64,000 bases of DNA from Eledone cirrhosa (lineage: Eukaryota): the NCBI GenBank assembly GCA_964016885.1, contig OZ024743.1, positions 39,928,001-39,992,000 on the forward strand, given 5' to 3'. The notes under the pieces are model-generated. The model worked only from the letters and a program-made list of their open reading frames with translations. It searched no databases and was not told the DNA's origin. Shown here one piece after another: positions 2,675 to 54,533 of this stretch; positions within the stretch are counted from its first letter, which is position 1; every line of letters starts with the position of its first letter. The translations under genes were made by a program, and so were the position numbers.

Positions 2675-3515
2675 AATTCTTGAACTCTGTATTTAGCAGA
2701 GTAATGGGCCTTAAAGTTTCTGTTATCCCTCTTGTTAAGAACCTTTCTCAGCAGCACCACCGCTCCTCGGTTCACCGAGCTGGGAATTCTCCAGTTCTGC
2801 TGCCAGTCGCAGTAGACGTCCGCCAAGATGTCTTGAACACGTCTGGCATGGGTAGGTAAAGTTCGTAGGGAAGACCATTCAAAGCAGCCGATTCACCCAT
2901 CCTGCAGTGAGTCATTGCTACTCGTATGTCAGCGGCTGTTATCGGCCTTTCGGAACATTCCACCCAGTGGCCGAGAGCCGCGGCAGTCCGTCAAGGTAGG
3001 CACTAAAGTCCATCCTGCAATCCCACCCACCACTGCCCCCGAACAGCTGAGTTAAGTGCCACTGAAAAACCCTCACACATTTGCTCGGGTTCGAGTAGCA
3101 TGTGCCCTCCGTGGTCCTCCAAAGACCGGACCGTGGTTTTGTTGCCATGTCGCGCCTAATCGACCCGGGCCCATTGAACGGCTTTCGGCCCCTCGTGTCT
3201 GAGAGCACGCGCCGTAGCTCTGCCATCGCAGTCATCGTTCTCTGTGTTGAAGTATTGGTCCAGGGTCAACTTCGCCGCTAGCACGTCGGTATCGATCCCT
3301 TTACTAAGCGCCTCAACTAATTTTCTAACTAATTGTCCCTCTGCTCTATTTATCTCTATTGCTAACGCCTTACTAAATTTAATGGACTCTATTCTAATCG
3401 GCCTTTTTTAGGGTGAACCTCTATTTGTTGCCCTCGTAACTCCCGCTTAATTAGTTCGCTAATTCGCACTATATAGGCTTTGTGCGCTGTCAACGATTCA
3501 TTTAGCTTCCAGTAT
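2675..3515 (-). mobile_element. Internal Tx1 ORF2 fragment (EN C-terminus to RT start)
   Basis: YWKLNESLTAHKAY, MDFSAYLDGLPRLSA and GLPYELY match the neighbouring copy. It covers the same RT segment as 2390-2500, so it is a separate copy. Confidence 0.8.
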
Positions 3516-3529
3516 ATAATAATCCTGTC

Positions 3530-3592
<63 letters not shown>
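3530..3592. repeat. (AAT)n microsatellite, 3' tail/target of Tx1 copy B
   Basis: Pure AAT run abutting the Tx1 3' end. Confidence 0.95.
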
Positions 3593-3593
<1 letters not shown>

Positions 3594-3836
3594 TTTTCTT
3601 TATTAACCACAAGGGTTTACATAAAGTAGACATTAAGGACAGTACAGGACAATACAGGACGGTACAAATGGGCATTTCTGCGTGTAAAAAAAACAGAGGA
3701 TGAAATAAAATAACAAAGAAAAATTCCCCAATAGGGGGGAGACTTCCGAGGGACATTTGTGGAGAAAGCCCATTAAAAGACCACAGTGGTCCTGACCACC
3801 AGGGCAAGTGCCATCTCCCAGTTTTCCACCTTTAAT

Positions 3837-6800
3837 TTACAGACACATACTCAGAGAAGGCCCATTCATTCGGGCCATACTTGCTTCTCTCACCCATCTT
3901 TCAACAAAATGCTGGGAAGAGAGCACTTCCCTCTCTACCCTGATTTTCCTTTTCAGATGAAATTTGAAAAAGTTAATCAGGGCATCACCGAAGAGGTAAT
4001 TGCTCGACTTCAGCCCTTTCAAACGTGTCCACCATACTCTCTCTTTCGCCATGGCCACCAGACATATAAAAACTGCCTGCCCTTCCCGGCTAAAGGAAGA
4101 GGGCGGGGCAATCCTCACGATGGACTCAGCTGATAGCTGCATCCGTCCTACACGTGACAGCAGGTGTTCGACATAAACCCACAAGTCAGCAATGATCGGA
4201 CACTGGACGAGAGCGTGCAGGACGGTTTCGTCGCCCTGTGCGCATCTCGGACATGCTCGGCTGACGGCACCACCATGCCTGTAAAGTTTATCCCGAACTG
4301 GCAAAGCACCCCGGTAGCACTGCCAGGATAGGGATTTCTGGAAGTTGTCCATAGGCCCCGGCCCGAAATTCCTTCCGAAGAGATTGGCTAGTTGATTTTC
4401 ATCGACTCCTAGAGTTTCTCCAAGTACGTCGTCGCTCTTCCCCTCCACTAATCCTCTATAGAACGCCAAGGTGGAGTTTCCACCGATCACATTTCCCGAT
4501 TGGTCGAGGGCTGTGAGCGCCTGAAGACATTCCAGTCTCCAAGCGCTCCCTATCGGTCTTCGCTTGACCCAGGACTGCAGCTCCGTCAAGGAGACGAGCT
4601 GGGGAAAAACGTGTCTAGGAAACGGCGACAACCTGATCACCGTCGAGGAAGAGGTGGAGATGTCGTAGCCTGAGCGCGTGTCTGCGCATCATCAGCCACG
4701 GCATGCCCAGCCCTCTACGTAGCGGGTGTTGACAGCAGACGGACCGCCTGACCATCAGAGCACGTCCCTTCAACAAGAAGCGAAAGAGCAAACGCTCCAG
4801 CGCAGTCAGGCGGGGCGTAGGACAAGGTACGACGGTCAGGCGGTAGTAGATGACGGACGCGATGTACGGGTTAGCCACCTCCGCTCAACCTTTCAGGGAT
4901 AGCTTCCTCTGGGCCCATTTCTGGGTGAGAGAAGCCACCCTGCTTGTCACCTCGTCCCAGTTTTTGTCCGTCTGGAGGTCTGGACCGAACCAGACCCCTA
5001 GCAAGTTAACCGGTCCGTCCGACCAGCGCCCGACGACGCTGTTGGACGGCATGGACCTGCCTCTCCAGGTGCCGAGCTGCAGGCCCACTGACTTTTCCTG
5101 GTTGATCATTGCTCCTGTCACCGCTTCGTATTCTCTTAGTGTAGTGCCGATCGCCTCGATGTGTTTGGCGTTCGACACCACTACGGTGACATCGTCGGCA
5201 TATGCTGACACGGATCTTCCGCATCCTAGTTCGCGCGGCACCCCCCTCAACGTCTCCAGTTTGTGCAGTAATGGCTCGAGAGTCAATACGTACAATAGGG
5301 ACGAGAGGGGACATCCTTGGCGGACCGAGCGCATGATGCTGAACGGTTCCGAAAGGTGAGCGTTCACTCTCACTACAGAGCAGGACTGCCGCTAGGTAAC
5401 AATGGTCGACCCTATCGAAGGCTTTCGACTGATCTAAATTGATCAAAGACCCACCCGTGCCAGGTTCCCTAGCTACCCTCTCTACGATGAATCGCATGAG
5501 GTGGAGGTTGTCGTGAATGGATCTGTCGGGAGTGGCGCATGTCTGTGCCTCTCCCACCAGACCACCAACGACAAGCGCCAACCTCTTTGCTAGCACCTTG
5601 GCCAAAATCTTGAACTCTGTGTTTAGCAGAGTTATGGGCCTAAAATTATCTATGTTATCCCCCTTGTTCGGATCCTTTCTCAGCAGCGCCACCGCTCCTC
5701 GGCTCAGAGCTGGGAATTCTCCCGTTCTGTTGCCAGTTGCAGTAGACGTCCGCCAAGAGGCCTCCGAACAAGTTTGGCATTTGTACGTAAAGTTCATAGG
5801 GTAGACCATCTAAACCAGGCGATTTACCCCTTGTGCAACTAATCATTGCATCCCGTACTTCAGCGGTTGTTACCGGCTTTTCTCAACACTCCGCCTCAGT
5901 GGCCGAAAGCCGCGGCAGTCCATCGAGGTAGACACTAAAGTCCATCCCTCGATCCGGCCCGCCACTACCCCCGAACATTTGAGCGAAGTGTCGCTGAAAA
6001 GCTTCACACATTTGCCCGGGATCGAGTAGCATGCGCCCGTCGTGGTCCACCAAAGACCGGATATTGGCTTTGTTGCCACGACGCGCCTCCGCCACTCGGG
6101 CCCATTGAACGGCTTTCGTCCCCTCGTGTCTGAGAGCACGCACCCTAGCTCTGACAACGCAGCCTTCGTGCTTTGCATTGAAGAATTGGTCAAAGGCCAA
6201 TTTCGCCGCAAGTACGTCGGTCGCGATGCCTTTGCTAAGCGACTCATCTAATTTTCTAACTAATTCTCCCTATGCTCTATTTTTCTCTATTGCTAAAGTC
6301 TTACTAAACCTAATGGACTCTATTCTAATTGCTCTTTTCAGAGCAAACCACCACTTGTTGTTGACGATGTCCCCCGTCAACGCCCGCTTAACTAGTTCGC
6401 TAATCCGGTCTCTGTAGGCCTTGCGCGCTGGTAAGGACGCGTTTAGCTTCCAGTAGCCGGGTCCTCGTCTATGAAGCCTATCTAAGTCAAGCACACAGAT
6501 CACGAATTTGTGGTCCGTGTAGCTGACTATCTGGAATTGTGGACAGCCTATGCTAGACCTATCTATTTCCCTACAAAATACTCTATCTAGATATGATCTG
6601 GATGACCCTATGCGATTTGTCCAAGTCCACATTGGTACATATTGAAATCCATTCGGTACCTGTCAGACAGTTCAAAACGTCTGAGCAGGTTGGTGAGACT
6701 CTTGCACCCTCCTTCCCTGTCCTCTAATCCCACACAATCCCAGCGTGCATCTAAGATCCCGTTCCAGTCGCCCACTAACACTAAAGAGCGGGACGTTTCA

Positions 6801-7189
6801 AGAAAGGTCTCCAGACGCCGGAAGAAATCAGGCCGCCCTGCTCCTGTCGGGGCATAGACGGCCACTAACCTGAAAGCTAGGCCGTCTCCGCTGGTCACAA
6901 CCAGCACAACCAACTTACCATCTGGGTCCAGGAAGATGGCCCGTATGGCAAGATCCAACCCTCTCCGAAAAAGCACAGCAACTCCTCCCCCCGATCCCGG
7001 ACGGCTGGGAGATGCGTACACATCGTAGCCGCCGAAGATCGGTGCGAAAGCCTGTGCTTCGGAGATTCTGGTCTCGCTGATGGCCACTACATCTATGTTT
7101 AGTGACCTGATGTCGTTGAGCAGGTGGCCCTACTTCAATGACGACCCCAAGCCACGCGCATTTATGCTACCTCTTCTGCGTGAGGTCAT
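3837..7189 (-). pseudogene. Tx1 ORF2 (APE endonuclease + reverse transcriptase + Cys-rich domain), frameshifted
   Basis: SINARGL, ISETR, VYAP, GDWN, YLDR and TDHK (APE); FRPITLLNTEFKI, LDQSKAFDRV, VRQGCPLS and YADD (RT); CPRC-x8-HALVQC. Has stops, frameshifts and a ~60-bp RT deletion near 5375 relative to copy C. Confidence 0.9.
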
Positions 7190-7223
7190 GTTGAAATGGA
7201 GTGGAAAAGATGAGAAAGACCAC

Positions 7224-9227
7224 TTACCTTACTTCTCGTAGGGGAAGGACGTTTTTTCCATCCTTTTCACTGCTTGTGGCCTCCTCAGGAAGGATGTCCT
7301 TATAAATCCTCCTGGAGAGTGCTTGTCGGAAGTCTCCGATGTCTTTGGGGAATTTTTGTTTTAGTGTCATGTACGTTTTCTGTGTGATGCGAGTGATTTG
7401 TATGTGTGGAGGTGGTGTGAATTTTGGGGTTGTTGTGTAGTCTTTTTCTGTGATGCTGGTGTTGTGTTGGATGTAGTGTAATAATTGCTTGTTGTTCAAA
7501 TTTAATGCTGTGTAGTGTGTATCGTTTTGGTTGTTTTGCTTTGTTTGCGTTTGTTGTGCGTTTGTTTCTGTTTCACATTTTGGTGACTTTTGTGGTGTAG
7601 GTGATGGTGGTGTTGGGGTTAATGATGGTGATGGGGTTGGTGTTTGGGTTGATGGGTTTGGTGATACTGGTGTGGATGGTGGCATATCTGTCCTAACTTT
7701 TTTGTTTCTTAATTTATTTGTTTCCCTCTGTATTTTGTTTTTGGAGGGGGAAGGAAGAGAATTTTTTCTTTTTTGGTTTCTTTTTTTTTTCCGGATATCG
7801 TTTCCCACTCCTCGTCGTCACAATCTGTCTCCAGTTGTGATAGGCCGGGGAGTGGAAAATCCTCCACAGCCGTCAGTTTTGGTTGTGGCATGGTGGATGG
7901 TGTAGGCGCTGGTGCTAGTTCTGAAGCGTTGGGTGGTGGTGGTGTTGGTTTTGCTGGTGGTGGTGGTGGTGTTGGTTTTGCTACTGTTGCTGGGGTTGTT
8001 GCTGTTATAGTTGCTTCTGTTGTTGCTGCTACAGTTGTTGCTGCCATCTCTGCTACTGGTGGTGTTGATGGTTGTGTCACTGGGGTGGGTAGGAGTGGTG
8101 GCCTCAACCTTTTAGCCTGAGGGCAGAAAGCCCTTAGGTGGGTTCCTTCACCACAAACGACACACCCAGGTCTTCTGCCCTCGACAATTACCGTGAGGTG
8201 GCTGCCGTCAGTGAGGTCTATTACCTCTGGGATCTCCTCAATGCTTTTTTGGTCCGCTTGGATCAGGAGCTCCATCCCAGATCCGGACCAGTTCTCCTGC
8301 TTTTCTTTTGCTATTGCTATTATTTTTGTGTTGGCTTCGATGCCGGCGAGGACGGCCGCTATTAGCCAGGGAATTTCGATGGCCGGTGGAACGTGGGTCA
8401 CCCTGATCTTTACGAGTCTCTGGCCACAATAGCTTGGGACGAGTGTGAAGTCGTCACTTCTTAATGGGACCATGGAGTGTTCTCTAGCCTCCTCTGGTGT
8501 TTCAAAGAACACGTCCACGGTTCCATACTTTTGCCCACGTCTGATGTGGGTTTTTCTTGCCCACACATGTCCCAAAGCTTTTTGGATTTGGGACTCGGAT
8601 GCCCGTTCCACTCGGCGCGATTTTACATTTATTGTTCTATACGACACGGTGCATAGGCGCCGATGCTCCATTTTATTAGGTGGGGTGTGAGGCTGACCCT
8701 GTACCCATCTTTCTTTACCATTTGTTTGGCATTTTCTAAATCCTCCTGAGTTACCGTAAATGCTTCGAACTGTTGTGCTACTCTGGCGAAACTGAGGGTC
8801 GGTTTTATAATGTCATTGTTGTTGTTGTTGTTGCTATCGTTATTTGTGTTAATATTAATTTTAGTTTCAGTTGTGGTGGTGGTGACGTCAGTCGTCTTTG
8901 GTGGGGAAGAGTCCATTTTGCTTAATTTCATTTCGACATCACGAGATAATTTATTTTTTTCTTCTTTTGTTTCTGTTGTCGCGGTGGTGGTGGGGGTTGG
9001 GTTGTCGCGGTGGTGGTGGTGGTGGAGGCTTTAACACCTGCAGTCATTGGTAATGGCGGGAAATGAATGTCTGCCTGAGACAAATTTAAAATATTGCTAC
9101 TGCTTATATTTTTTTTTGTGTTGGCAAACGTAGTAACATTTACAATGGTGGTGTCGGTGTGAGGTGTTAATTTGTGAGGAAGGCTTTCAGCTGCTTGGTG
9201 CAGAGGTGAATTAGCCATTGTTTTCAA
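7224..9227 (-). pseudogene. Tx1 ORF1 (gag-like nucleic-acid-binding protein), frameshifted
   Basis: Pieces 8928-9227, 8629-8931, 7709-8671 (CVVCGEGTHLRAFC zinc knuckle, Pro/Thr-rich linker) and 7224-7808. Confidence 0.8.
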
Positions 9228-9427
9228 AGAAATTTTTTTTATAATAATAAAAGTTTAAATTTTGGACACAAGGCCCCAATAATTTTGGGTGTCCTTTTCG
9301 GAAAACTATGTATGTGCGCTTATAAACAGTTAACAATAAAAATTTTCCATAAATGACAATTTTTAACAAACGGAAATAACAAACCTTTGCGGAGCTCACG
9401 ATGATACGATTTACTACGTAGGTCGCC

Positions 9428-9475
<48 letters not shown>
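9428..9475. repeat. (AAT)n microsatellite between Tx1 copy B 5' end and the Dong element
   Basis: Pure AAT run. Confidence 0.95.
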
Positions 9476-12213
9476 TGAAAAGAAAGTACACTATAAAATG
9501 AACAAATGACATAGACATGCTGATAGAAATAATCAAGCAAAAAGTGTCGGCCAAAGCTGGTCGTATAAGGTGCTTTGAAAAACGATCTAGATTCTATAAG
9601 GACAATAATATGTTCAAAAACAACCAAAGAAACTTCTACAGAAAAATTGGTAAGTCAACAATAACTGCTAAATCAATACCACCCAAGGAGGAAGTGCAAG
9701 AATTCTGGGAAAAGATCTGGGCCGAAGAAAAAGTTCATAACATACATGCCCCATGGATAGACAGACAAATGAAAGAAACAGCTCACCTTGAGGAACAAAC
9801 ATGGGAAAATATAACAGTTGAACAGTTGCGCTTGGCTCTAAGAAAAACCAGCAAATGGAAATCCCCAGGAAAAGACAAAATACAAAACTTTTGGATAAAT
9901 GCCTTCACAGAGTCTCATGAGCTGTTAGACCAACTTTACAATGAAATAGTTAAGGAGCCAGAAAAGATACCATCATGGCTAGTTAACGGCATTACATTCC
10001 TGCTACCGAAGAATGATGAGACAAACAATCCCAAAAACTACAGACCGATAACCTGCTTGACCACAATGTATAAAATGTTAACATCAGTCCTAACTGAATA
10101 TACATATGACCACCTGATAACAAATGACCTATTTCCCATTGAGCAGAAAGGGTGTAAACGAGGCTCATATGGCTGTACGGATCAGCTTTTGGTTAACAAA
10201 ATGATACTGGAAGATTGTCATAATAGACACACAAATATATCAATTGCTTGGAAAGATTATAAAAAAGCATTCGATAGTTTGCCACACAGCTGGATTGAAA
10301 AATGTTTAGAGATTTTCAAAATATCTCCCGTTGTCAGGAGGTTTTGTCGTTCAGTATGAAGACATGGAAAACGACACTCCTTTTGAATAGTGAAACAAAA
10401 TCACTGGAAGCTGGAAAAGTTAATATTAATCACCGCTTTTATACTGCATCACACTTATACCAATAAGTAAAATGATCAATGAAACAAAACATGGATATAA
10501 AGTCTACGACAAAACCATTAATCACTTGTTCTACATGGATAACTATTTGCAAAAAATGATGAACAATTGCAAGGGCTATTATCTGCTGTGGTGCAGTTCA
10601 GTGATGACATTAAATGGAGTTTGGACTAGATAAATGCGCCAAAGCAACGTTCACCAGAGGAAAGCTGTTGAAAAGTTCAGGCATTAATCTTGATCGGGGA
10701 ATGTGATAAGAGAACTTGATCAAGAGAAAACTTACAAATATCTAGGTGTTTGTGAAGGAGACGTAATCAAGCACTCGACAATGAGGGAAAGGATAAGGAA
10801 GGAATGTTACCACAGAGTAAGAGCAATCTTAAGAACGGAATTGAATGCAAGGAATAGGATCGATGCCATAAACACGCTTGTCATACCAGTAATAACCTAC
10901 AGTTACAAAGTCATCAACTGGTCAAGCACAGAAATCCGTAGGGTCGATACAAAAATTCGAGAATTCTTAACCATGCACAGAATGCATCACCCTAAGACAG
11001 ATATAGATAGAATATATCTCCCTAGGAAAGAAGGAGGACGTGGGTTAATCCAGTTAGACATTGCGTTGAAAACTGCAACAATTGGCTTATCTACATATCT
11101 CAGGGAATCACATGATTGGATGATCAAACTCGTTTTGAAACACGAAAGCATCAAAAGATCATACTCCATTACAAAAGATGCACAAAGATACAGTAACGGA
11201 CTACAAATTTCAGAAGTCCCATTTACTGCTGAAATGGAAATCAGAAAAAGCAAAGCAGGTAAAAGTAACTGCAAAGAAAGAACTGCTACAGAAACTGGCT
11301 AATAAATGGCAAGAAAAGCCTCTGTATGGGAAATACCCAGAACGAGGTAACAATCCTGATGTTGACAAAACTTTAACCCATCAGTGGTTGGCATCCTTTG
11401 GACTGAAATCGGATACTGAAGGACTGATTATATCAGCACAACATCAGTGTCTGCCAACAAAAAATTACCAAGCCAACATAATAAAAAATGGATGCAGCCC
11501 ATTATGCCGTGTATGTAAAAAACAACCAGAGACCATTGACCATATAATTTCAATGTGCAGTCCTATAGCTCCAACCGAATACCTAAACAGTCATGACAGA
11601 GCTGCACAATACATACATTGGATAATGTGTAAGCATTTTGACCAGCCCCATCAAAAGAATTGGTGGGATCATCAACCACCTCCCATACTTGAAAAAGATC
11701 ACATCTCAATCTTGTGGAATTTAGCATCCAAACAGACGAAAAACAGATACAAATAGACTTGATATAATATTGAAGGTCTTTAAAAAGAGGGTATACCTGC
11801 TAATTGATATGTCTGTTCCAATAGACAAGAATATATCTATAAAAACCTTTGAAAAATTGAGCAAGTATAAGGACCTGGAGATAGAAATTAGAAAAATGTG
11901 GAAGTTGAGAACTAAAACAATACCAGTGGTTGGAGGCGCTCTAGGAATGATACCTTAGGGGTCTAATGATTACTTATCGCAAATGCCAGGAAACCCGCGT
12001 ATAGGAGAAATACAAAATATATTACTAATGGGAACTGCCCATATACTAAGGAAGATTCTGTCAATATGAGTACATCACAAGTCTAAACAACTAAATATGC
12101 ATATGTGAGTATGTATGTTCTTTCTTAAACATGGCGAACCTTGTTGTCTCTTGAGGTCACTGGTTGTGACTTGGTGATAACTCGTATCAACATAAAGCAA
12201 GATAAATGTAGCT

Positions 12214-12214
<1 letters not shown>
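9476..12214 (+). mobile_element. 5'-truncated R4/Dong-clade non-LTR retrotransposon (RT + CCHC + restriction-like endonuclease), defective
   Basis: NYRPITCLTTMYK, DYKKAFDSLPH, HLFYMD, KTYKYLG; CRVC-x7-HIISMC followed by HD; RLE region LLIDMSVP...KLSKYKDL...IPVVGGALG; ends in (TAA)n. Confidence 0.9.

Positions 12215-12260
<46 letters not shown>
12215..12260. repeat. (TAA)n shared as 3' tail by Dong (+) and Tx1 copy C (-)
   Basis: Pure TAA run between two convergent 3' ends. Confidence 0.95.
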
Positions 12261-12261
<1 letters not shown>

Positions 12262-15200
12262 CTTTCTTTACCACAACAGTTTACATAAAGTAGACATTAA
12301 GGACAGTACAGAAAAATACAGGACGGAACAAATGGGCATTTCTGCGTGTAAAAAAAACAGAGGATGTAATAAAAAATAACAATGAAAAATTATCCAATAG
12401 GGGGGAGACTTCCGAGGGACATTTGTGGAGAAAGCCCATTAAAAGGTCACAGTGACCCTGGCCACCAGGGCAAGTGCCCTCTCCCAGTTTTCCACCTTTA
12501 ATTTACAGACACATACTCAGAGTAGGCCCATTCACTCGGGCCATACTTGCTTCTCTCACCCACCTACAACAAAATGCTGGGAAGAGAGCACTTCCCTCTC
12601 TACCCTGATTTTCCTTTTCAAATGAAATTTGAAAAAGTTAATCAGGGCATCACCGAAGAGGTAAGTGCTCGTCTTCAGCCCTTTCAAACGTGTCCACCAT
12701 ACTATATCTTTCGCCATGGCCACCAGACAGATAAAAATTGGCTGCCCTTCCCGACTAAAGGTAGAGGGTGGGGCAATCCTCACGATGGACTCAGCTGATA
12801 GCTGGATCCGTCCTACACGTGACAGCAGGTGTTCGACATAAACCCACAAGTCAGCGATGCTCGGACAAAGGACGAGTGCGTGCAGGACGGTTTCGTCGCC
12901 CTGCGCGCATCTCCGACATGCCCGGCTGACGGCACCTCCATGCCTGGGGAGTTTATCCCGAACTGGCAAAGCTCCTCGGTAGCACTGCCTGGCCAGGGAT
13001 TTCTGGAAGTTGTCCATAGTCCCGGCACGAAAGTCCTTCCGAAGAGATTGGCTAGTTGATCTTCGTCGACGCCTAGAGTTTCTCCAAGTACGTCTTCGCT
13101 CTTCCCCTCCACTAATCCTCTATAGAACGCCAAGATGGAGTTTCCACCGATCACATTTCCGGATTGGTCGAGGGCTGTGAGCGCGATGAAGACATTCCAG
13201 TCTCCAAGCGCTTCCTCTCGGTCTTCGCCTGACCCAGGACTGCAGCTCCGTCAAGGAGACGAGCTGGAGAAAGACGAGTCTAGCAAACGGCAACCACACC
13301 TGATCACCGTCGAGGAAGAGGTGGAGATGTCGTAGCCTGAGCGCGTGTCTGCGCATCATCACGGCATTCCCAGCCCTCCACGTAGCGGGTGTTGACAACA
13401 GATGGACCGCCTGACCACCGGAGCGCGTCCCTTCCATAAAAAGCGAAAGAGCAAACGCTCCAGCGCAGTCAGACGGGGCTTAGGATAAGGTACGACGGTC
13501 AGGTGATAGTAGATGACGGACGCGATGTACGCGTTAGCCACCTCCGCTCGACCTTTCAGGTATAGCTTTCTCTCAGCCCATTTCTGGGTGAGAGAAGCCA
13601 CCCTGCTCGTCACCTCGTCCCAGTTTTTGTCCGTCTGGGGTTCGGGACTGAACCAGACCCCTAGCAATTTAACCGGTCCGTCCGTCCAGCGCCCGACGAC
13701 GCTGTTGGACGGCATGGACCTGCCTCTTCAGGTGCCGAGCTGCAGGCCCACTGACTTTTCCTGGATGATCATTGCTCCTGTCACCGCTTCGTATTCTCTT
13801 ATTGTAGTGCCGATCGCCTCGATGTATTTGGCGTTCGACACCACTACGGTGACATCGTCCGCATATGCTGACACGGATCATCTGCATCCTAGCTCGCGCG
13901 GGATGCTCCTCAACGTCTCCAGTTTGTGCAGTAATGTCTCGAGAGTCAATACGTACAATAGGGACGAGAGGGGACTCCTTGGCGGACCGAGCGCATGATG
14001 TTGAACGGTTCCGAAAGGTGACCGTTCACTCTCACCGCGGAGCAGATGTCGCTGTGCATGACATCGATCCTGCCTCTGAGACGGGCCCAAAGCCAGCCGC
14101 CCTCAGGACTTCCGCTAGGTAACAATGGTGGACCCTATCGAAAGCTTTCGACTGATCTAAATTGATCAAGGACCCACCCGTGCCAGGTTCCCTAGCTACC
14201 CTCTCTCCGATGTATCGCATGAGGTGGAGGTTGTCGTGGATGGATCTGTCGGGAATGGCGCATGTCTGCGCCTCTCCCACCAGACCACCTACGACAAGCG
14301 CCAACCCCTTTGCTGGCACCTTGGCCAAAATCTTGAACTCTGTGTTTAGCAGTGTTATGTGCCTGAAATTATCTATGTTATTCCCCTTGTTCGAATCCTT
14401 TCTCAGCAGTGCCACCACTCCCCGGCTCACAGAGCTGGGAACTCTCCCGTTCAATTGCCAGTTGCAGTAGACGTCCGCCAAGAGGCCTCCGAACAAGTCT
14501 GGCATTTGTACGTAAAGTTCATTGGGCAGACCATCCAAACCAGGCGATGTACCCCTTGTGCAGCCAGTCATTGCCTCAGGTACTTCAGCGGCTGTTATCG
14601 GCTTTTCGCAACACTCCGCCTCAGTGGCCGAGAGCAGCGGGAGTCCGTCGAGGTAGACACTAAAGTTCATCCCTCGATCCGGCCCGCCGCTGCCCCCGAA
14701 CAGCTGTGCGAAGTGTCGCTGAAAAGCTTCACACATTTGCCCGGGATGGAGTAGCGTGCGCCCGTCGTGGTTCACCAAAGGCCAGATCGTGGCTTTGATT
14801 CCACGACGGGCCTCCGTCACTCGGGCACATTGAACGGCTTTCGCCCCTCGTGTCTGAGAGCACGCACCCTAGCTCTGACAACTCAGCCTTCGTGCTTTGC
14901 ATTGAAGAATTGGTCAAGGGCCAATTTCGCCGCAAGTACGTCGGTCGCGACGCCTTTGCTAAGCGTCTCGTCTAATTTTCTAACTAATTCTCCCTCTGCT
15001 CTATTTTTCTCTATTGCTAAAGCCTTACTAAACGTAATGGACTCTATTCTAATTGCTCTTTTCAGAGCAAACCACCACTTGTTGTTGACGATGTCCCCCG
15101 TCACCGCTCGCTTAACTAGTTCGCTAATCCGGTCTCTGTAGGCCTTGCGCGCTGGTAAGGACGCGTTTAGCTTCCAGTAGCCGGGTCCTCGTTTATGAAG

Positions 15201-18057
15201 CCTATCTAAGTCAAGCACACAGATCACGAATTTGTGGTCCGTGTAGCTGACTATCTTGAATTGTGGACAGCCTATGCTAGACCTATCTATTTCCCTACAA
15301 AATACTCTATCTAGATATGATACGGATGACCCTATTCGATTTGTCCAAGTCCACATTGGCACATTCGGGAAATCCAATCGGTACCTGTCAGACAGTTCAA
15401 AACGCCTGAGCAGGTTGGTGAGGCTCTTGCACCCTCCACCCCTATCCGCTAATCCCACACAGTCCCAGCGTGCATCTAAGATCCCGTTCCAGTCGCCCAC
15501 TAACACTAAAGAGCGAGACGTTCCAAGAAAGGTCTCCAGACGCCGAAAGAAATCAGGCTGCCCTGCTCCTGTCGGGGCGTAGACGGCCACTAGACTGAAA
15601 GCTTGCCCGTCTCCGCTGGTCACGTCCAGCACCACCAGCTTATCCTCTGGGTCCAGGAAGATGGCCCGTATGGCGAGATCCAAACCTCTCCGAAAAAGCA
15701 CAGCAACTCCTCCCCCGATCCAGCACGGCTGGGAGATGCGTACACATCGTAGATCGGTGCGAAGGCCCGTGCTCCGGAGATTCTGGTCTCGCTGATGGCC
15801 ACTACATCTATGTTTAGTGACCTGATGTCGTTGAGCAGGTGGCCCTACTTCCATGACGACCCCAAGCCACGCGCATTTATGCTGCCTCTTCTGAGTGAGG
15901 TCATGTTGAAATGGAGTGGAAAAGATGAGAAATACCACTTACCTTAATTCTCGTAGAGGAAGGACGGTTTCTCTATCCTTTTCAATGCTTGTGGCCTCCT
16001 CAGGAAGGATGTCCTTATAAATCCACCTGGAGAGTGCTTGTCGGAATTCTCCGATGTCTTTGGGGAATTTTTGTTTTAGTGTCATGTACGTTTTCTGTGT
16101 GATTAGAGTGATTTGTATATGTGGAGGGTGTGTGAACTTTTGGGTATTTGTGTAATATTTTTCTGTGATGCTGGTGTTGTGTTGGATGTAATGTAATAAT
16201 TGGTTGTTGTTCAAATTTAATGCTGTGTAGTGTGTATCGTTTTGGTTGTTTTGTTTTGTTTGCGTTTGTTGTGGCTTTGTTTCTGTTTCGCATTTTGGTG
16301 ACTTTTGTGGTGAAGGTGATGGTGGTGTTGGGGTTAATGATGGTGATGGTGTTGGTGTTTGGGGTGATGGGGTTGGTGATGCTGGTGTGGATGGTGGCAT
16401 GTCTGTCCTAACTTTTTTGTTTGATTGTTTATTTGTTTTCCCTCTGTATTTTGTTTTTGGATGGGTAAGGTTTCTTTTTTTAATTTTTCCTGATACCGTT
16501 TCCCACTCCTCGTCGTCACAATATGTCTCCAGTTGTGATAGGCCGGGGAGTGGAAAATCCTCCACAGGCGTTAGTTTTGGTTGTGGCGTGGTGGATGGTG
16601 TAGGCGCTGGTGCTAGTTCTGGCGCGTTGGGTGGTGGTCGTGTTGGTTTTGCTACTGTTGCTGGGGTTGTTGCAGTTACAGTTGCTTCTGTTGTTGCTGC
16701 TACATTTGTTGCTGCCATCTCTGCTGCTGGTGGTGTTCATGGTTGAGTCGCTGGGGTGGGTAGGAGAGGTGGCCTCATCCTTTTAGCCTGAGGGCAGAAA
16801 GGACTTAGGTGGGTTCTTTCACCACAAACGACACACCTACGCCTTCAGCCCTCGACAATTACGGTGAGGTGGCCGCCGTAAGTGAGGTCTATTACCTCTG
16901 GGATTTCCTCAATGCTATTTTGGTCCGCTTGGATCATGAGCTCCATCCCAGATCCAACCAGGTCTCCTGGTTTTCTTTCACTATTTCGATTATCTTGGTG
17001 TTGGCCTCGATGCCGGCGAGGACGGCAGCTAGTAGCCAGGGAATTTCGATGGCGGGTGGAACGTGGGTCACCCTGATCTTCACGAGCCTCTGGCCACAAT
17101 AGCTTGGGACGAGTGCGAAGTCGTCACTTCTTAATGGGTCCATGGAGTGTTCTCTGGCCTCCTGTCGTGTTCCAAAGAATTCGTCCACGTTGCCATATTT
17201 CTGCCCATATCTGATGTCGTTTTTTTTTGCCCACATATGTCCCAAAGCTTTTTGGATTTGGGACTCGGATGCCCGCTCCACTCGGCGCGATTTTATGTTA
17301 ATCGTCCGATAAGACACGGTGCATAGGCGCCGATGCTCCATTTTATTAGGCGTGGGGATGGGTTTGGGGGGTACCCATCCTTCTTTACAATTCATTTGGG
17401 TTCTTCTAATTGCTCCTGATTTACCTGGATTGCTTCGCACTTTCTTGCTACTCTGGCAAAAGACAGGGTGGTTTTCTTATTCTAATTGTTGTTGTTGCTC
17501 TTGTTGTTATCGTTATTTTGGTTATTGTTAATTTTAGTTTCCGTTGTGGTTGTGGTGACGTCAGTGGTGTTCGTTGTAGAAGAGTTCATTTTCGGTGATT
17601 CCATTTCGATCTCACGAGATCATTTCTTTCTTTCTTTTGTTTCTATTGTCACTGTGGTGGTGGTAGGGTGGCGGCTTCAAGACCTGCAGTAATTGGTAAT
17701 GGCGGGAAATGAATGTCTGCATGAGACAAATTTAAAATATTGCTACGCTTATATTTTTAGTGTTGGCAAACGTAGTAATATTTAGAATGGTGGTGTCGGT
17801 GTGAGGTGTTAGTTTGTGAGGAAGGTGTGACAGTGAGTCGTCCATGATTTTTGAAGAAAATGTTTGTTTGATAATTATAACAGTTTAAATTTTGGGCTCA
17901 AAGCCCCAATCGTTTTGAGTCTCCTTTTCAGAAAACAATGTATGTGCACTTATATACAGTTAACAATAACAATTTTCCATAAATGGCAATTTTAAACAAC
18001 TGAAAATAACAAACCTTTGCGGAGATCACGATAATACGATTTACTACGTAGGTAGCC
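12261..18057 (-). mobile_element. Full-length Tx1 LINE, copy C, defective
   Basis: Colinear with copy B end to end; ORF2 ~12503-15904 and ORF1 ~15939-17700, both frameshifted; 5' end ...ggtagcc|aataat. Confidence 0.92.

Positions 18058-18088
<31 letters not shown>
18058..18088. repeat. (AAT)n microsatellite at Tx1 copy C 5' end
   Basis: AAT run with one interruption. Confidence 0.9.
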
Positions 18089-45980: not shown

Positions 45981-47043
45981 AGCATTTTTAACCCTTTCGT
46001 CTGAAGACTGCCATCCTACTTAATATGTCGTCAGCCTCGTGGTCCTGGCCGAGGGAGATGACTTGGAACAGCCACTCCAATTCACGCGGCTCATAACTTC
46101 GAGCAACCAAATCCGCTCAGATATCAGTCAGCCGGGATGTGATCCGGGAACTATGAACCTCGGACGTCTCCACTGCTACAGGCTCTATCACAAACCTGTC
46201 AGAGACCGGTCGACAGTTGGACAGTTTTCTGTCTTCAGCCTGGCGGGCAGCGAAGCCTGTGCTGTTAGACGAGCACACCGGGTTTATACTAGTGAAGGTG
46301 TCACAACATGAAGCAACCCAAATGAGGGGCCTACTGCATTGAAACATAAGAAAGTCATTTCGCCTGGCCATTTAATCTCCCCTCGGTCCAGCTCTCTTGA
46401 TACACTTGCTTACCCAAGTCATTTTCTACTCATTTTATTTAACCAATTTATCATTATCGTTACCTCCCGAAACATCACCATTTCTTATTGATTCCAATTA
46501 TCGAATGTATTATCATAATCACCAACGCACATACCTTCCTTCTTTTTATTCAACTTAGCTCGTTTTACTGTAGGGTGATTGTGCCTGTTCAGATATCTAG
46601 GGTGAGAAGATAAGTTCATTTGAAATTATCTCTATTCGGTTTAAATAGCACTAGCTTAAATACATGGCATTTGCCAAAAAACAAAATTTAAACTAGTATG
46701 TAGTAACTTCGATATTATATTGAGATTTAATGACGTAGCCTTTCATGTGATAATACGGAATTTTTTTCGCTTTGCTCTGAATATATTGACATTGAAACGA
46801 AATTACACATTTGTACGCTCATGCATTCATGTAAACTGAATAAATATTTAGAAAGTGTGTTTATTTTAAAACTCTATGAAATGAAGGTAAACGAATCCTT
46901 AAGAGGATTTCAGACAAGTTTTATTTCCTATTTATTGTATGCCTTCTCTTGTTTTTTAAACTGAAAAGTCTTCAAACATGGAATTGCATTAATATTAAAG
47001 CACTTGGTGTATTTAGCTTTTCATACTGGTTCTCATTATTTTC

Positions 47044-47098
47044 AACATCATCGTCATCGCCATCATCATCATCATCACCAATCTCATCATCATCATCC

Positions 47099-47131
<33 letters not shown>

Positions 47132-47462
47132 ACATCAACATTGTTACCACCACCATCATCATCATCATCATGTTCATCCTTATCATCAACATCTTCGCCA
47201 TTATTATAATCAGAATCAGCAGTAGCAGCATCTTCTCAGCCACACGATGGTCGTCATCGTCGTAATCATCAAAAGCAGCATCATCATCGTCACAGTTGTC
47301 ATACCCATTCATCATCATCATCCTCATCATCATCATCATCATCGACATATTCGTCATTATCTCTATCGTCATCGTCCACGTCATCATCTTTATTACCATA
47401 ATCATTATCATCACCATCATCAACACCATCGTAACCATGATCGTTGTCAACATCATCATCAT
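47044..47462. repeat. Degenerate (CAT)n low-complexity tract
   Basis: Direct reading. Confidence 0.9.
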
Positions 47463-48474: not shown

Positions 48475-49094
48475 AATATCTAATGTTTATTCTTTCTTTA
48501 TAATGTATTATATAGCTTTATATTGAATCAATCTAATCCATTCAGATTATGTTGTCCCTATTATTCATAGAGTAACAACGGTTAAGGTTGGCACCACACA
48601 AATTCAGGGATATATGTAGGTATATGCATGTCTATGTATGTATTCGCATGTGTCTGTGTATTTCTTTGTATTGGTTATAACTCCCTACAGTAGATTACCC
48701 ACTGAAGTATAGTGACTGCTGTTAAGCTTACACTAATCACACTTCTCGCCCTCCTAGCCAACTCTTCTACGGCCTTGACATAAAGACCCCCTCCTCCTTT
48801 TGTGGTATTTTTATCTTGGTTGTAAGAGGCTTAGCTCTGTTTCTTGACCGCTGTATCACGTGATAAGTTCCTCCTCCGCCTTTCGGGATTCTATCTCGCG
48901 TCCTACGGACGTGTTTTGAAACACTAAATGAGTTATCCTCTTGATAAGTCGGCAAACCTCACACAAATACTGCATATCTATGATGTAATGTTTTTGCATA
49001 ATAGCCCCGAAACTACGTAGTCGAGGATAATGAAGGAATCTAGGTATATTATATATTTTTATTTATATGTAATGTTTCCTTTTTCTTTATAATG

Positions 49095-49097
<3 letters not shown>
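48475..49097 (+). mobile_element. Older diverged ~590-bp unit of the hammerhead repeat family
   Basis: Colinear with the 591-bp unit (gttggcacc, cttctcgcc, ctcttctacggcct, ttagctctgtttct.gaccg); its end motif taatgttt...tttctttataatgtatta recurs at 48481 and 49070. Confidence 0.85.
48933..49030 (+). ncRNA. Type I hammerhead ribozyme, U3-A8 variant (diverged copy; stem II weakened)
   Basis: ttatcctc-TTGATAA-gtcggc...gcccc-GAAA-ctacgtag-TC|gaggataa; 8-bp stem I. Confidence 0.7.
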
Positions 49098-49137
<40 letters not shown>

Positions 49138-49368
49138 GAAACACACAGATACATGCGGACACACACATATATACATGAATGCATCCGCACCCAACTGCGA
49201 GTTAAGGGTGCCAACTTCACCGATGTTGCTCAATGAATGACTGGGACAGACCAATTCAGTTTGAACCAGACTGAACCAGTATCAGAGTTAAAAATACATT
49301 ATGAAGAGAGAAGAAACATTTAGATATAATTGGTAATAAAATGTATCATACCTAAACTGCTCCTAAAT

Positions 49369-49456
49369 TCCTCGACTACGTAGTTTCGTGGCATAAACAA
49401 AAACAATATATCAAAGATATAGAGTCCTTGCGAGGTCTGCCAACTTATCAAGAGGA
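49369..49456 (-). ncRNA. Hammerhead ribozyme (U3-A8), array copy 1
   Basis: Reverse complement of the motif at 51898-51985. Confidence 0.8.
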
Positions 49457-49959
49457 TACCTCATTTTACTAGTCTCAAGAACGCGTCTACATGACGTGAG
49501 AAAGAATCCCAAAAGGCGGAGGGGGAGATAGTCACGCGATATAACGGTCGAGAAACAGAGCTAAACCTCTTATAACCACGAAGAAAATACCACGGAGGCG
49601 GAGGGGGTATTCATATCGAGGCCGTAGAAGAGGTAGTGAAGAAGGCGAGAAGTACGAGTAATGGAAGCTTTCCAGTTGTCCCCACACTTCAAAGATTGCT
49701 CGACCAGAGGGAGTTATTAATATATTTAGAAACACACAGATACATGCGGACACACACATATATACATGAATGCATCCGCACCCAACTGCGAGTTAAGGGT
49801 GCCAACTTCACCGATGTTGCTCAATGAATGACTGGGACAGACCAATTCAGTTTGAACCAGACTGAACCAGTATCAGAGTTAAAAATACATTATGAAGAGA
49901 GAAGAAACATTTAGATATAATTGGTAATAAAATGTATCATACCTAAACTGCTCCTAAAT

Positions 49960-50047
49960 TCCTCGACTACGTAGTTTCGTGGCATAAACAAAAACAATAT
50001 ATCAAAGATATAGAGTCCTTGCGAGGTCTGCCAACTTATCAAGAGGA
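49960..50047 (-). ncRNA. Hammerhead ribozyme (U3-A8), array copy 2
   Basis: 591 bp after copy 1, identical motif. Confidence 0.8.
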
Positions 50048-50550
50048 TACCTCATTTTACTAGTCTCAAGAACGCGTCTACACGACGTGAGAAAGAATCC
50101 CAAAAGGCGGAGGGGGAGATAGTCACGCGATATAACGGTCGAGAAACAGAGCTAAACCTCTTATAACCACGAAGAAAATACCACGGAGGCGGAGGGGGTA
50201 TTCATATCGAGGCCGTAGAAGAGGTAGTGAAGAAGGCGAGAAGTACGAGTAATGGAAGCTTTCCAGTCGTCCCCACACTTCAAAGATTGCTCGACCAGAG
50301 GGAGTTATTAATATATTTAGAAACACACAGATACATGCGGACACACACATATATACATGAATGCATCCGCACCCAACTGCGAGTTAAGGGTGCCAACTTC
50401 ACCGATGTTGCTCAATGAATGACTGGGACAGACCAATTCAGTTTGAACCAGACTGAACCAGTATCAGAGTTAAAAATACATTATGAAGAGAGAAGAAACA
50501 TTTAGATATAATTGGTAATAAAATGTATCATACCTAAACTGCTCCTAAAT

Positions 50551-50638
50551 TCCTCGACTACGTAGTTTCGTGGCATAAACAAAAACAATATATCAAAGAT
50601 ATAGAGTCCTTGCGAGGTCTGCCAACTTATCAAGAGGA
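50551..50638 (-). ncRNA. Hammerhead ribozyme (U3-A8), array copy 3
   Basis: Identical motif. Confidence 0.8.
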
Positions 50639-51141
50639 TACCTCATTTTACTAGTCTCAAGAACGCGTCTACACGACGTGAGAAAGAATCCCAAAAGGCG
50701 GAGGGGGAGATAGTCACGCGATATAACGGTCGAGAAACAGAGCTAAACCTCTTATAACCACGAAGAAAATACCACGGAGGCGGAGGGGGTATTCATATCG
50801 AGGCCGTAGAAGAGGTAGTGAAGAAGGCGAGAAGTACGAGTAATGGAAGCTTTCCAGTTGTCCCCACACTTCAAAGATTGCTCGACCAGAGGGAGTTATT
50901 AATATATTTAGAAACACACAGATACATGCGGACACACACATATATACATGAATGCATCCGCACCCAACTGCGAGTTAAGGGTGCCAACTTCACCGATGTT
51001 GCTCAATGAATGACTGGGACAGACCAATTCAGTTTGAACCAGACTGAACCAGTATCAGAGTTAAAAATACATTATGAAGAGAGAAGAAACATTTAGATAT
51101 AATTGGTAATAAAATGTATCATACCTAAACTGCTCCTAAAT

Positions 51142-51229
51142 TCCTCGACTACGTAGTTTCGTGGCATAAACAAAAACAATATATCAAAGATATAGAGTCC
51201 TTGCGAGGTCTGCCAACTTATCAAGAGGA
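51142..51229 (-). ncRNA. Hammerhead ribozyme (U3-A8), array copy 4, in the palindrome spacer
   Basis: Identical motif. Confidence 0.8.
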
Positions 51230-51897
51230 TACCTCATTTTACTAGTCTCAAGAACGCGTCTACACGACGTGAGAAAGAATCCCAAAAGGCGGAGGGGGAG
51301 ATAGTCACGCGATATAACGGTCGAGAAACAGAGCTAAACCTCTTATAACCACGAAGAAAATACCACGGAGGCGGAGGGGGTATTCATATCGAGGCCGTAG
51401 GAGCAGTTTAGGTATGATACATTTTATTACCAATTATATCTAAATGTTTCTTCTCTCTTCATAATGTATTTTTAACTCTGATACTGGTTCAGTCTGGTTC
51501 AAACTGAATTGGTCTGTCCCAGTCATTCATTGAGCAACATCGGTGAAGTTGGCACCCTTAACTCGCAGTTGGGTGCGGATGCATTCATGTATATATGTGT
51601 GTGTCCGCATGTATCTGTGTGTTTCTAAATATATTAATAACTCCCTCTGGTCGAGCAATCTTTGAAGTGTGGGGACAACTGGAAAGCTTCCATTACTCGT
51701 ACTTCTCGCCTTCTTCACTACCTCTTCTACGGCCTCGATATGAATACCCCCTCCGCCTCCGTGGTATTTTCTTCGTGGTTATAAGAGGTTTAGCTCTGTT
51801 TCTCGACCGTTATATCGCGTGACTATCTCCCCCTCCGCCTTTTGGGATTCTTTCTCACGTCGTGTAGACGCGTTCTTGAGACTAGTAAAATGAGGTA

Positions 51898-51985
51898 TCC
51901 TCTTGATAAGTTGGCAGACCTCGCAAGGACTCTATATCTTTGATATATTGTTTTTGTTTATGCCACGAAACTACGTAGTCGAGGA
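51898..51985 (+). ncRNA. Hammerhead ribozyme (U3-A8), array copy 5; predicted cleavage after C51980
   Basis: Stem I tcctc/gagga; core TTGATAA (51903-51909); stem II gt(t)ggca/tgccac; GAAA (51967-51970); stem III actacgtagt; GUC site. Confidence 0.82.
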
Positions 51986-52488
51986 ATTTAGGAGCAGTTT
52001 AGGTATGATACATTTTATTACCAATTATATCTAAATGTTTCTTCTCTCTTCATAATGTATTTTTAACTCTGATACTGGTTCAGTCTGGTTCAAACTGAAT
52101 TGGTCTGTCCCAGTCATTCATTGAGCAACATCGGTGAAGTTGGCACCCTTAACTCGCAGTTGGGTGCGGATGCATTCATGTATATATGTGTGTGTCCGCA
52201 TGTATCTGTGTGTTTCTAAATATATTAATAACTCCCTCTGGTCGAGCAATCTTTGAAGTGTGGGGACAACTGGAAAGCTTCCATTACTCGTACTTCTCGC
52301 CTTCTTCACTACCTCTTCTACGGCCTCGATATGAATACCCCCTCCGCCTCCGTGGTATTTTCTTCGTGGTTATAAGAGGTTTAGCTCTGTTTCTCGACCG
52401 TTATATCGCGTGACTATCTCCCCCTCCGCCTTTTGGGATTCTTTCTCACGTCGTGTAGACGCGTTCTTGAGACTAGTAAAATGAGGTA

Positions 52489-52576
52489 TCCTCTTGATAA
52501 GTTGGCAGACCTCGCAAGGACTCTATATCTTTGATATATTGTTTTTGTTTATGCCACGAAACTACGTAGTCGAGGA
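52489..52576 (+). ncRNA. Hammerhead ribozyme (U3-A8), array copy 6; cleavage after 52571
   Basis: Identical motif. Confidence 0.82.
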
Positions 52577-53079
52577 ATTTAGGAGCAGTTTAGGTATGAT
52601 ACATTTTATTACCAATTATATCTAAATGTTTCTTCTCTCTTCATAATGTATTTTTAACTCTGATACTGGTTCAGTCTGGTTCAAACTGAATTGGTCTGTC
52701 CCAGTCATTCATTGAGCAACATCGGTGAAGTTGGCACCCTTAACTCGCAGTTGGGTGCGGATGCATTCATGTATATATGTGTGTGTCCGCATGTATCTGT
52801 GTGTTTCTAAATATATTAATAACTCCCTCTGGTCGAGCAATCTTTGAAGTGTGGGGACAACTGGAAAGCTTCCATTACTCGTACTTCTCGCCTTCTTCAC
52901 TACCTCTTCTACGGCCTCGATATGAATACCCCCTCCGCCTCCGTGGTATTTTCTTCGTGGTTATAAGAGGTTTAGCTCTGTTTCTCGACCGTTATATCGC
53001 GTGACTATCTCCCCCTCCGCCTTTTGGGATTCTTTCTCACGTCGTGTAGACGCGTTCTTGAGACTAGTAAAATGAGGTA

Positions 53080-53167
53080 TCCTCTTGATAAGTTGGCAGA
53101 CCTCGCAAGGACTCTATATCTTTGATATATTGTTTTTGTTTATGCCACGAAACTACGTAGTCGAGGA
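53080..53167 (+). ncRNA. Hammerhead ribozyme (U3-A8), array copy 7; cleavage after 53162
   Basis: Identical motif. Confidence 0.82.
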
Positions 53168-53236
53168 ATTTAGGAGCAGTTTAGGTATGATACATTTTAT
53201 TACCAATTATATCTAAATGTTTCTTCTCTCTTCATA

Positions 53237-53322
<86 letters not shown>

Positions 53323-54533
53323 ATATATATTTGTAGTAAGGTTGCTTGGATGCGTCTATATGCGGTATGATGGTTGAACACTCAATGCTTCTTCGGAGCA
53401 GAATATGATAATATGGAAAACGAAGAATCAGTGACGCATCGGAACACAATTTATTGCGTATTACAAATGTTCTCCCGCGAACATATATTTAAAAGAAGGA
53501 AAAGAAGGACTTCATTTGTGGTTCTAAACCATCTTATTTAAATTTATAATATAATTTTACAATTTGGTTTTGTAGATCTAGTAAGTTCTTTGTTAACTTC
53601 GCTGGGGAGAATTTTAAAGATTGCTGGTTAACTTTCCTGGAGAACTTTCTCGCATTCGTGGGTGGCGATTGGCAAACTAATGTTTGACGAATGCGAGAAA
53701 GTTTTGCAGGAAGTCAAACCCAACTGATTAGCCTGCGCACATAAATTAATCAGCGGGGAAGGTGTCTTCGTCTACGTAAAATAATTGAGATGCATTTGCT
53801 TCGATGGGTCCGATCTTCTGGCAGTGTTTCCAGGGAACAACAATGTGCAGATTATTAATTATTTTTCGTAACTTTAGGTAATTTGGCGTGGAACCGTTTC
53901 CTCATCGAGAGTTCACCTCCCTGTAATGAAACAATCTATATGGCGTCCTATTACCTTCCGTTGCTATTTGCAATTGAATGTAATAGTTTTCAACTGCTAA
54001 TGACGCCTGACGTCACATCAAACAAAAAATAAGTGAGGCCTGGCCATTTACAGGAACATACGATGGAATTGATTCATAATGAAAAAATATGACGATGTGA
54101 AAAGCACTTTACAAGGGTGATTTCATATAGAAAACAAGGACAGTACAGTAAACAATAAATAAAAAAAGGCTTGGAAAACAGAGTTAGAAAGTTTAACTTA
54201 CAATTTAAATGCAGTAAGGATTCCCTCTGAATGAACATGTTTAGGATTCGAAGCTTGTCGAATAGAATGAACATACCTTCGGTCAATTCGCTACTCACTC
54301 AATAATCGATTAAGTTTGTATTATTAAAATTTAAATCTAACTACTTTGAATACACACATACGTTAATCAGTGAGGAAGACGTTATCGTGTAGGTAATATA
54401 TATATGTAAATATATATAGGTAAATATTGATGCAATTCAATTCAAGCACTCAACGTACTTTTTCCACATAGGAGTGACGGAGTAAATATCGAATAAGGAA
54501 AAGCGAACATCTGAAACTACTTCGCTTTTCCTT

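Follow-up and report, generated by a model that had tools for sequence, protein, structure and literature searches.

The palindromic array in Eledone cirrhosa contig OZ024743.1 is best read, with a probability of about three in four, as a head-to-head insertion of a 591-bp hammerhead repeat into (TA)n, likely made in trans by a Penelope-like protein with reverse transcriptase (RT) and GIY-YIG domains, which would have primed both nicked strands on a single RNA, probably a circle, at two fixed internal sites. The features counted directly are the outer ends (unit positions 80 and 245–247), their pairing, the haplotype shared by the two arms, the microhomology at the junctions, the scatter of the inversion points and read-through at the cut site. 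In the mechanism that we infer, both (TA)n strands would be nicked, each target 3′ end would anneal to an AU-rich start site located immediately 3′ of a hairpin, the cDNAs would each extend over several monomers, and the two cDNA 3′ ends would be joined by 1–5 nt of microhomology and then filled in. Twin priming from both strands of a (TA)n target had been suggested in an earlier note on this DNA; the suggestion is supported here, and in a sharper form it places the two starts at fixed sites on a single RNA. The array is an ordinary representative of a family of small mobile repeats that encode no protein and carry a predicted self-cutting RNA.

The array and its predicted ribozyme

The window, by which we mean the whole 64,000-nucleotide stretch analysed, contains two arms of the repeat that meet head to head (Table 1). 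The earlier note had described a palindrome with 1,845-bp arms and this holds to the base: 49294–51138 is the reverse complement of 51398–53242, the match ends exactly at these bounds, and the alignment of these arms contains two mismatches (49492/53044 and 50268/52268; 99.9% identity). The 259-bp spacer that had been placed between them does hold one hammerhead, on the minus strand, but it is not a separate segment, being instead the 5′ part of the left arm. The insertion is asymmetric because the left arm also extends 165 bp beyond the palindrome. The right arm, of 72 + 3 × 591 nt, begins at unit position 9, which is indeed 8 nt 3′ of the extrapolated cut at 51389. The letters at the junction are also as first described, and TAG is the exact microhomology within them; the 'interrupted microhomology' seen there is correct in its letters but unremarkable, as 16% of random joins score as well and the junction ranks 9th of 70. 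The TC of this interrupted match lies 5′ of the cut and therefore, if it was paired, the template was uncut there. Both ends of the array merge into (TA)n, as had been noted, so that any target-site duplication would be hidden.

The new insertion landed in the (TA)n tail of a copy of an older sister family. Upstream of this older copy lies a degenerate (TCA)n tract of 140 units (window 47042–47462), and some older-family copies end in (CAT)n. Elsewhere in the window, at about 2675–18088 on the minus strand, a broken LINE-type element is present in two diverged copies, which lie about 8.7 kb from each other and are 89–93% identical; they show matches to endonuclease, RT and zf-RVT and have tails of (ATA)n/(TAA)n. 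Another RT fragment is found at 9517–11756 on the plus strand.

Table 1. Features of the insertion and its surroundings, in window coordinates; unit positions are counted from the base after the predicted cut.
Feature	Position	Strand	Remarks
Left arm	49129..51400	-	2,272 bp, 3.8 monomers; 5′ end at unit 338, 3′ end at unit 245 (site B)
Right arm	51398..53242	+	1,845 bp, 3.1 monomers; 5′ end at unit 9, 3′ end at unit 80 of a later monomer (site A)
Head-to-head junction	51398..51400	.	3-nt microhomology TAG
One-sided extension, 165 bp	49129..49293	-	Unit 81-245; counterpart of the Penelope 'tail' described between two start sites (PMC11167929, PMC8557442)
Type I hammerhead motif in spacer	51139..51232	-	Predicted cut after 51147
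First complete hammerhead motif, right arm	51895..51988	+	
Further hammerhead cores	52494, 53085	+	
Further hammerhead cores	49451, 50042, 50633	-	
Predicted hairpin A (unit 10-63)	51399..51452	+	Right arm begins at the hairpin's 5′ base; folding of its equivalent at 51986-52062 gave z -3.15
Predicted hairpin A upstream of start site A, right end	53172..53225	+	
Predicted hairpin B (unit 171-236), left end, preceding start site B	49138..49203	-	Same hairpin folded at 52146-52228, z -5.85
(TA)n left flank	49098..49134	.	Follows site-A end of older relative
(TA)n right flank	53240..53330	.	
Single-arm copy of older sister family	48476..49098	+	Unit of 590 bp sharing about 73-75% identity and the hammerhead core; terminates at its own site A

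The repeat unit is 591 bp long, with 1,567 of 1,570 positions matching at that period, and its position 1, the base after the predicted cut, corresponds to window 51981. Seven hammerhead motifs are spaced 591 bp apart along the array. The predicted plus-strand cleavage positions are 51980, 52571 and 53162, from which 51389 is extrapolated as the next, while in the minus-strand motif of the spacer the core starts from 51224 and C17 lies at 51147. The layout is that of a type I hammerhead, with stem I CCUC/GAGG, the core UUGAUAA (U3/A8), an extended stem II, GAAAC, a palindromic stem III and GUC. This core is present in 384 of the 397 motifs matched in the fetched loci and is conserved across two sister families that are about 73% alike; of the other matches, 11 represent a different, hammerhead-like motif in flanking DNA, with the core CUGAGAA and a different palindromic stem III. 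U3–A8 in place of C3–G8 is described as a natural covariant that is active in vitro (Perreault et al. 2011, PMC3088659); here the pair occurs in thousands of animal repeat copies, within a predicted motif. The stem III palindrome is predicted to pair between molecules (−12.9 kcal/mol), and the stem III motif has 7,675 matches. A scan of the window at Rfam gathering thresholds returned no match, and the isolated hammerhead motif folds no better than shuffles (z −0.53).

The unit is non-coding, its longest stop-free stretches being 86 and 83 codons with no ORF. The array is not an autonomous Penelope-like element, since the unit has no ORF with RT and GIY-YIG, and its tandem layout without terminal repeats gives no LTR. 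Judged on its sequence, the element is classed as a non-LTR retrozyme with Penelope-type ends. The role of the ribozyme likely lies at an earlier stage, in the production of monomers and circles, rather than in the placing of the junction.

Two fixed outer ends and a shared template

By exact patterns, 2,040 ends were counted in the genome for site A, which is unit position 80, and 644 + 1,021 for site B, at positions 245–247. Copies of the family are dispersed and mostly 92–100% identical, as in a young family. About 40 loci were sampled by best similarity and 80 by pattern in order along contig 1, a sample that is not random genome-wide, and a fresh set of 40 further pattern loci was fetched once predictions had been noted. 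About half of the insertions examined create inverted repeats like the one described here, two-arm head-to-head insertions making up 66/125 in the first set and 21/40 in the fresh set. Dropped before the counts were L032 (a duplicate of L031), the second copy in L077, L300 (the same as L203) and L253 (the same as L249), together with four two-arm cases with one undefined end, six three-piece cases and segments of less than 90% identity (e.g. L223). L031 and L032 are the same insertion found twice on one small contig (G000:C1704), inverted and about 50 kb apart, as a segmental or assembly duplicate, and at both L077 and L216 a single insertion is present as two tandem copies.

Sites A and B are the two outer ends of two-arm insertions, and they occur as a pair in 84 of the 85 cases in which both ends are defined (62/62 in the first set, 20/20 in the fresh set and 2/3 among later cases). 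The sole exception in the young family is a B+B insertion at L305; A+A was never seen. All six three-piece insertions likewise have A and B as their outer ends. The older 590-bp family uses the same two positions, and its 18 two-arm cases comprise 10 A+B, 2 that combine A with a nearby TA-like site at 211, 2 that are B+B-like and 4 that are unclassifiable. A hairpin is predicted before each site in both families (z −3.15 and −5.85 in the young family, −2.43 and −3.30 in the old). The tail between sites A and B is 165 nt at the present locus.

Other inverted structures were seen close to (TA)n. At L034 (3255–3315), where the copy has a single arm, the DNA flanking the (TA)n tract is duplicated in inverted orientation, and the 5′ junction of the copy lies directly next to this duplication. 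A near-perfect palindrome of ~60 bp lies in (TA)n just upstream of the long frame in L313, and is also found in the flanks of L050, L052, L053 and L057; it is probably the minimal head-to-head stub of another TA-targeting family.

The two arms of an insertion carry the same haplotype. Minor alleles are common to both arms at 150 sites and discordant at 5, compared with 35 and 266 for shuffled pairs, and the fresh set gave 25 shared and 5 discordant. Divergence is 0.2% within and 2.4% between insertions. At the junctions the overlap averages 2.2 nt (70 junctions) against 0.65 nt for random joins, 16 further junctions contain inserted bases, and extended imperfect homology is no greater than random. 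The lengths of the two arms are uncorrelated (rho −0.14, P 0.29) and therefore the two enzymes do not move in step.

The distribution of variants among monomers bears on the form of this template. Variant T400 is present in 7/7 monomers here, and genome-wide it is found in 9 other monomers at 8 loci, none of them adjacent and none with this haplotype. Its presence in every monomer, with no source array in the assembly, favours a circular template. A variant at L054 is similarly present in 6/6 monomers, with 14 single hits elsewhere. Private variants carried by all copies of an insertion comprise 11 A>G versus 4 T>C on the ribozyme strand, the corresponding figures for single-copy variants being 7 versus 20 (Fisher P 0.004); fixed variants with an A>G bias fit an edited monomer copied round and round. 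Seven private variants are present in some, not all, copies of an insertion, and at L035, L052, L113 and L137 such partial variants are common to both arms in one register, which argues that multimers also serve as template. A missing parent array, or gene conversion between the arms, could also make monomers uniform. Variants alternate every second monomer at L048, L052 and L305 (C,G,C; T,C,T; T,C,T), a pattern expected of a dimeric circle or of an array derived from dimers.

Sequence near-identical to the unit is found in sequencing runs labelled as 13 other organisms, and no RNA run was listed among the runs that contain it. The two contig sets of other labels that were examined contain the unit at low depth (about 8–13), and contamination or mixed samples are as likely an origin as relatives. 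In one of these two sets a contig forms a closed 591-base loop, a result equally given by a tandem array, and two Hi-C runs of another labelled organism gave 0 reads matching the unit.

Several other routes to this structure have to be weighed against twin priming on a circle. The closest retains the twin priming but dispenses with the circle: the template would in every case be a linear multimer, transcribed from a genomic array and left uncleaved. We regard this reading as possible though doubtful. The partial-copy variants common to both arms at the four loci named above agree with it, as do the heterogeneous monomers of the B+B case at L305 and a report that unprocessed RNA is the main substrate in vitro (PMC11167929). 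It provides no source array for the variants fixed in 7/7 and 6/6 monomers, nor does it predict the A>G bias among variants fixed in all copies, and a multimer would offer many A and B sites, yet A+A is absent. A more distant alternative is one priming event followed by fold-back, through self-priming on the antisense template or snap-back of the cDNA; antisense self-priming has been proposed for the inverted ends of Penelope (Arkhipova et al. 2013, PMC3846280). Such copying would suit the 43/62 insertions, this one included, in which one arm is contained in the other, and there are a few palindromic junctions (L046, L064 and L093). In the other 19/62, however, each arm covers sequence that the other lacks, so these insertions cannot have arisen by fold-back copying, and they weigh against the antisense self-priming just mentioned; fold-back also leaves unexplained that the second arm ends at the other fixed site, and the A>G bias lies on the ribozyme strand. 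We consider fold-back improbable. The least credible option is an assembly artefact, with the palindrome produced by fold-back or chimeric reads, or else the separate insertion of two copies into the same (TA)n. The near-identity of the arms (99.9%) and the attraction of (TA)n for repeated insertions would allow this, and no contig record bridges the junction: contigs from four sequencing runs compared with 51139–51640 end there in tandem-type loose ends, although these are filtered unitigs, possibly of another individual, and cannot prove absence. Against it, the arms differ in extent and at two bases, 259 bp are unpaired, the ends obey the family-wide rule, no target DNA is present at the junction, T400 is in both arms, and independent contigs show other head-to-head joints of the family.

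Inversion points relative to the ribozyme cut

The observation that the array inverts next to the cleavage position is correct for this locus, where the right arm begins at position 9, but across the family there is no link to the cut. Only 5 of 164 arm 5′ ends fall within 10 nt of it, where 5.5 are expected, and the count within 25 nt is 17/164 against 13.9 expected, with 1/164 at positions 589–3. The earlier note had tied the inversion to the ribozyme cut and held that this tie would fail if inversion points in other copies were random relative to the cleavage site; compared in this way, the inversion points of the other members are scattered, and the tie largely does fail. A cut site is crossed by 142 of the 164 arms, and two or more by 69.

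The same note had offered a template switch at a self-cleaved 5′ end as its second mechanism: RT would run off the ribozyme-cut RNA at that end, and the cDNA would then be joined to the other arm. The right arm of this insertion, starting so near the cut, is what such a switch would leave, and site-A arms as a class stop at 1–25 in 10/82 cases where 4.4 are expected (P 0.01). Joining could trim 8–20 nt, and in the older family, which has a longer stem I, two site-A arms end at the cut itself (L074 at 1, L251 at 590). Over all arms, however, there is no enrichment, with the 5/164 already given, and site-B arms never stop at 1–25 (0/82), an absence that an RNA end would not explain. In the fresh set 1/20 site-A arms stop at 1–25 and 0/20 at 9–24. 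The left arm of the present insertion crosses four cut sites and runs 262 nt past the point at which the right arm stopped. Seven distinct inversion-like joints in independent contigs (flagged uncertain) start at 53, 62, 79, 179, 180, 200 and 222, hence 0/7 at 9–33. A switch at the cleaved end is accordingly an unlikely origin of the junction, and twin priming at the two fixed sites, with arms that stop at scattered points, is the reading that we retain.

The stops that do recur among the arms relate to the hairpins. Site-B arms have a peak of their own, 12/82 stopping at 171–185 (2/20 in the fresh set, for a post hoc prediction). Both this and the site-A peak fall at the 5′ base of whichever hairpin precedes the start site of that arm, about 70 nt away from the site, and both are arm-specific, the ratios of site-A to site-B arms being 10:0 at 1–25 and 2:12 at 167–191. 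No site-B arm stops at 1–83 (0/82, 10.8 expected), and 5 stop at 84–95, just before site A. In 12 insertions the short-end arm stops at 1–40, and in 7/12, this locus included, the other arm passes that point if both started in the same monomer. Arm lengths of 57–76 modulo 591 are found in 22/164 arms (scan P 0.0007) and in 15/85 arms longer than one unit (P 0.0003); for these long arms the first set gave 12/69 (3.1 expected) and the fresh set 3/16 (0.93 expected, P 0.06). Single-arm insertions lack the 57–76 modulo 591 stop (0/44 long arms), and their site-A arms stop at 167–191 in 6/44. The right arm at the present locus likely stalled at the base of hairpin A, by chance 9 nt from the cut.

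These stops can be accommodated in a more specific model, which we put forward tentatively and with less than even confidence. An asymmetric dimer of Penelope RT would grip one edited 591-nt circle at two hairpins, each enzyme priming one target strand, and both would travel round the circle in a double rolling-circle reverse transcription. On every lap each enzyme would tend to pause about 70 nt beyond the site where it had started, an effect expected of a telomerase-like tether. Two post hoc predictions about where arms stop failed in the fresh set: that site-A arms stop at 9–24 (0/20), and, as stated, that site-B arms avoid 585–89 (3/20 fell there).

Relation to known elements and candidate machinery

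The array resembles the metazoan non-LTR retrozymes (Cervera and de la Pena 2020, PMC7229834; Li, Clavereau and Pollet 2026, 10.64898/2026.07.22.740005) in having non-coding tandem units with one type I hammerhead each, a GC content under 45% and dispersed copies, and its short palindromic stem III is like that of the dimer-dependent amphibian motifs (PMC7229834). It differs from them in its U3/A8 core and extended stem II, and the 591-nt unit compares with 170–400 nt (PMC7229834) and 51–972 bp (10.64898/2026.07.22.740005). A Penelope partner has already been proposed for metazoan non-LTR retrozymes. Head-to-head arms with two fixed ends are not described for retrozymes in the available text of PMC7229834, where the word 'inverted' occurs 0 times, or of 10.64898/2026.07.22.740005, where it occurs once, in the references.

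Penelope elements are described as forming partial tandems and carrying an adjacent inverted 5′-truncated copy and a tail that is often one-sided, with a bias for (TA)n (Craig et al. 2021, PMC8557442; PMC3846280), and the mechanism of their tandem and inverted insertions has been called undefined (PMC8557442). In vitro, purified Penelope protein is reported to cut and extend both strands from two internal start sites bounding the tail, without needing ribozyme cleavage, and these start sites show no strand preference (Frangieh et al. 2024, PMC11167929). With the endonuclease-positive Penelope-like elements the present array shares the partial tandem, the adjacent inverted copy, the one-sided tail, the (TA)n target and the two start sites; it differs in having no ORF, a tail of 165 nt rather than the 30–40 nt given for them, and arms of up to 5.5 monomers. 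What is added here over the Penelope papers are the counts of end pairing and of single-template origin. In the published work available to us, the route of retrozyme RNAs into DNA has so far been proposed, and this family gives countable footprints of it, namely the fixed pairing of ends, one template, an editing-like variant bias and an unmarked cut, together with predictions for the in vitro Penelope system. If the circle reading is true, a relative of telomerase copies circular RNA into chromosomal DNA, working at a break from its two sides. Read-through transcription of the palindrome could in principle give dsRNA.

Twin priming of L1 is said to have been described by Ostertag and Kazazian in 2001. 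L1 twin priming gives head-to-head copies, uses both target strands as primers and leaves junction microhomology; its arms are non-overlapping, and the first is primed at the poly(A) tail. The head-to-head geometry, the priming by both target strands and the microhomology are alike in the insertions studied here, whereas these have no poly(A), and each of their two start sites is internal and fixed. In 39/82 insertions each arm extends beyond the start of the other, so that the arms overlap on the template, unlike in the L1 model just outlined. L1 twin priming is mentioned in PMC2837659. Searches of the literature by title and the start of the abstract did not find twin priming for Penelope elements or retrozymes, although three papers mention twin priming alongside Penelope-like elements and supplements may show inverted retrozyme copies; the component parts are known, and their counted combination was not found in these searches.

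The genome has many frames with RT and GIY-YIG, and 10,597 GIY-YIG candidates. Among 88 GIY-YIG or RT loci, a small part of these candidates, no partner with an end homologous to the retrozyme was found; three of the 88 matched the unit, in each case through a near-identical copy of the retrozyme in the flanking DNA. A search by GIY-YIG family, RT protein and flank comparison gave several coding Penelope-like families with no shared end. The locus L180 is a coding Penelope-like element with RT, a CxxC linker and GIY-YIG in a frame of about 1,020 codons. A hammerhead descriptor search of L180 found no motif, and the folding of its ends does not exceed that of shuffles, which leaves the hairpin rule without support in this element. 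The element (L180:2340–7670; G000:C1:83810000–83819900) is young, with dozens of copies at 95–99% protein identity, and it lies in (TA)n as an inverted short-end arm plus a long-end arm, with a tail of about 47 nt between the ends: the same layout as the retrozyme in a different sequence.
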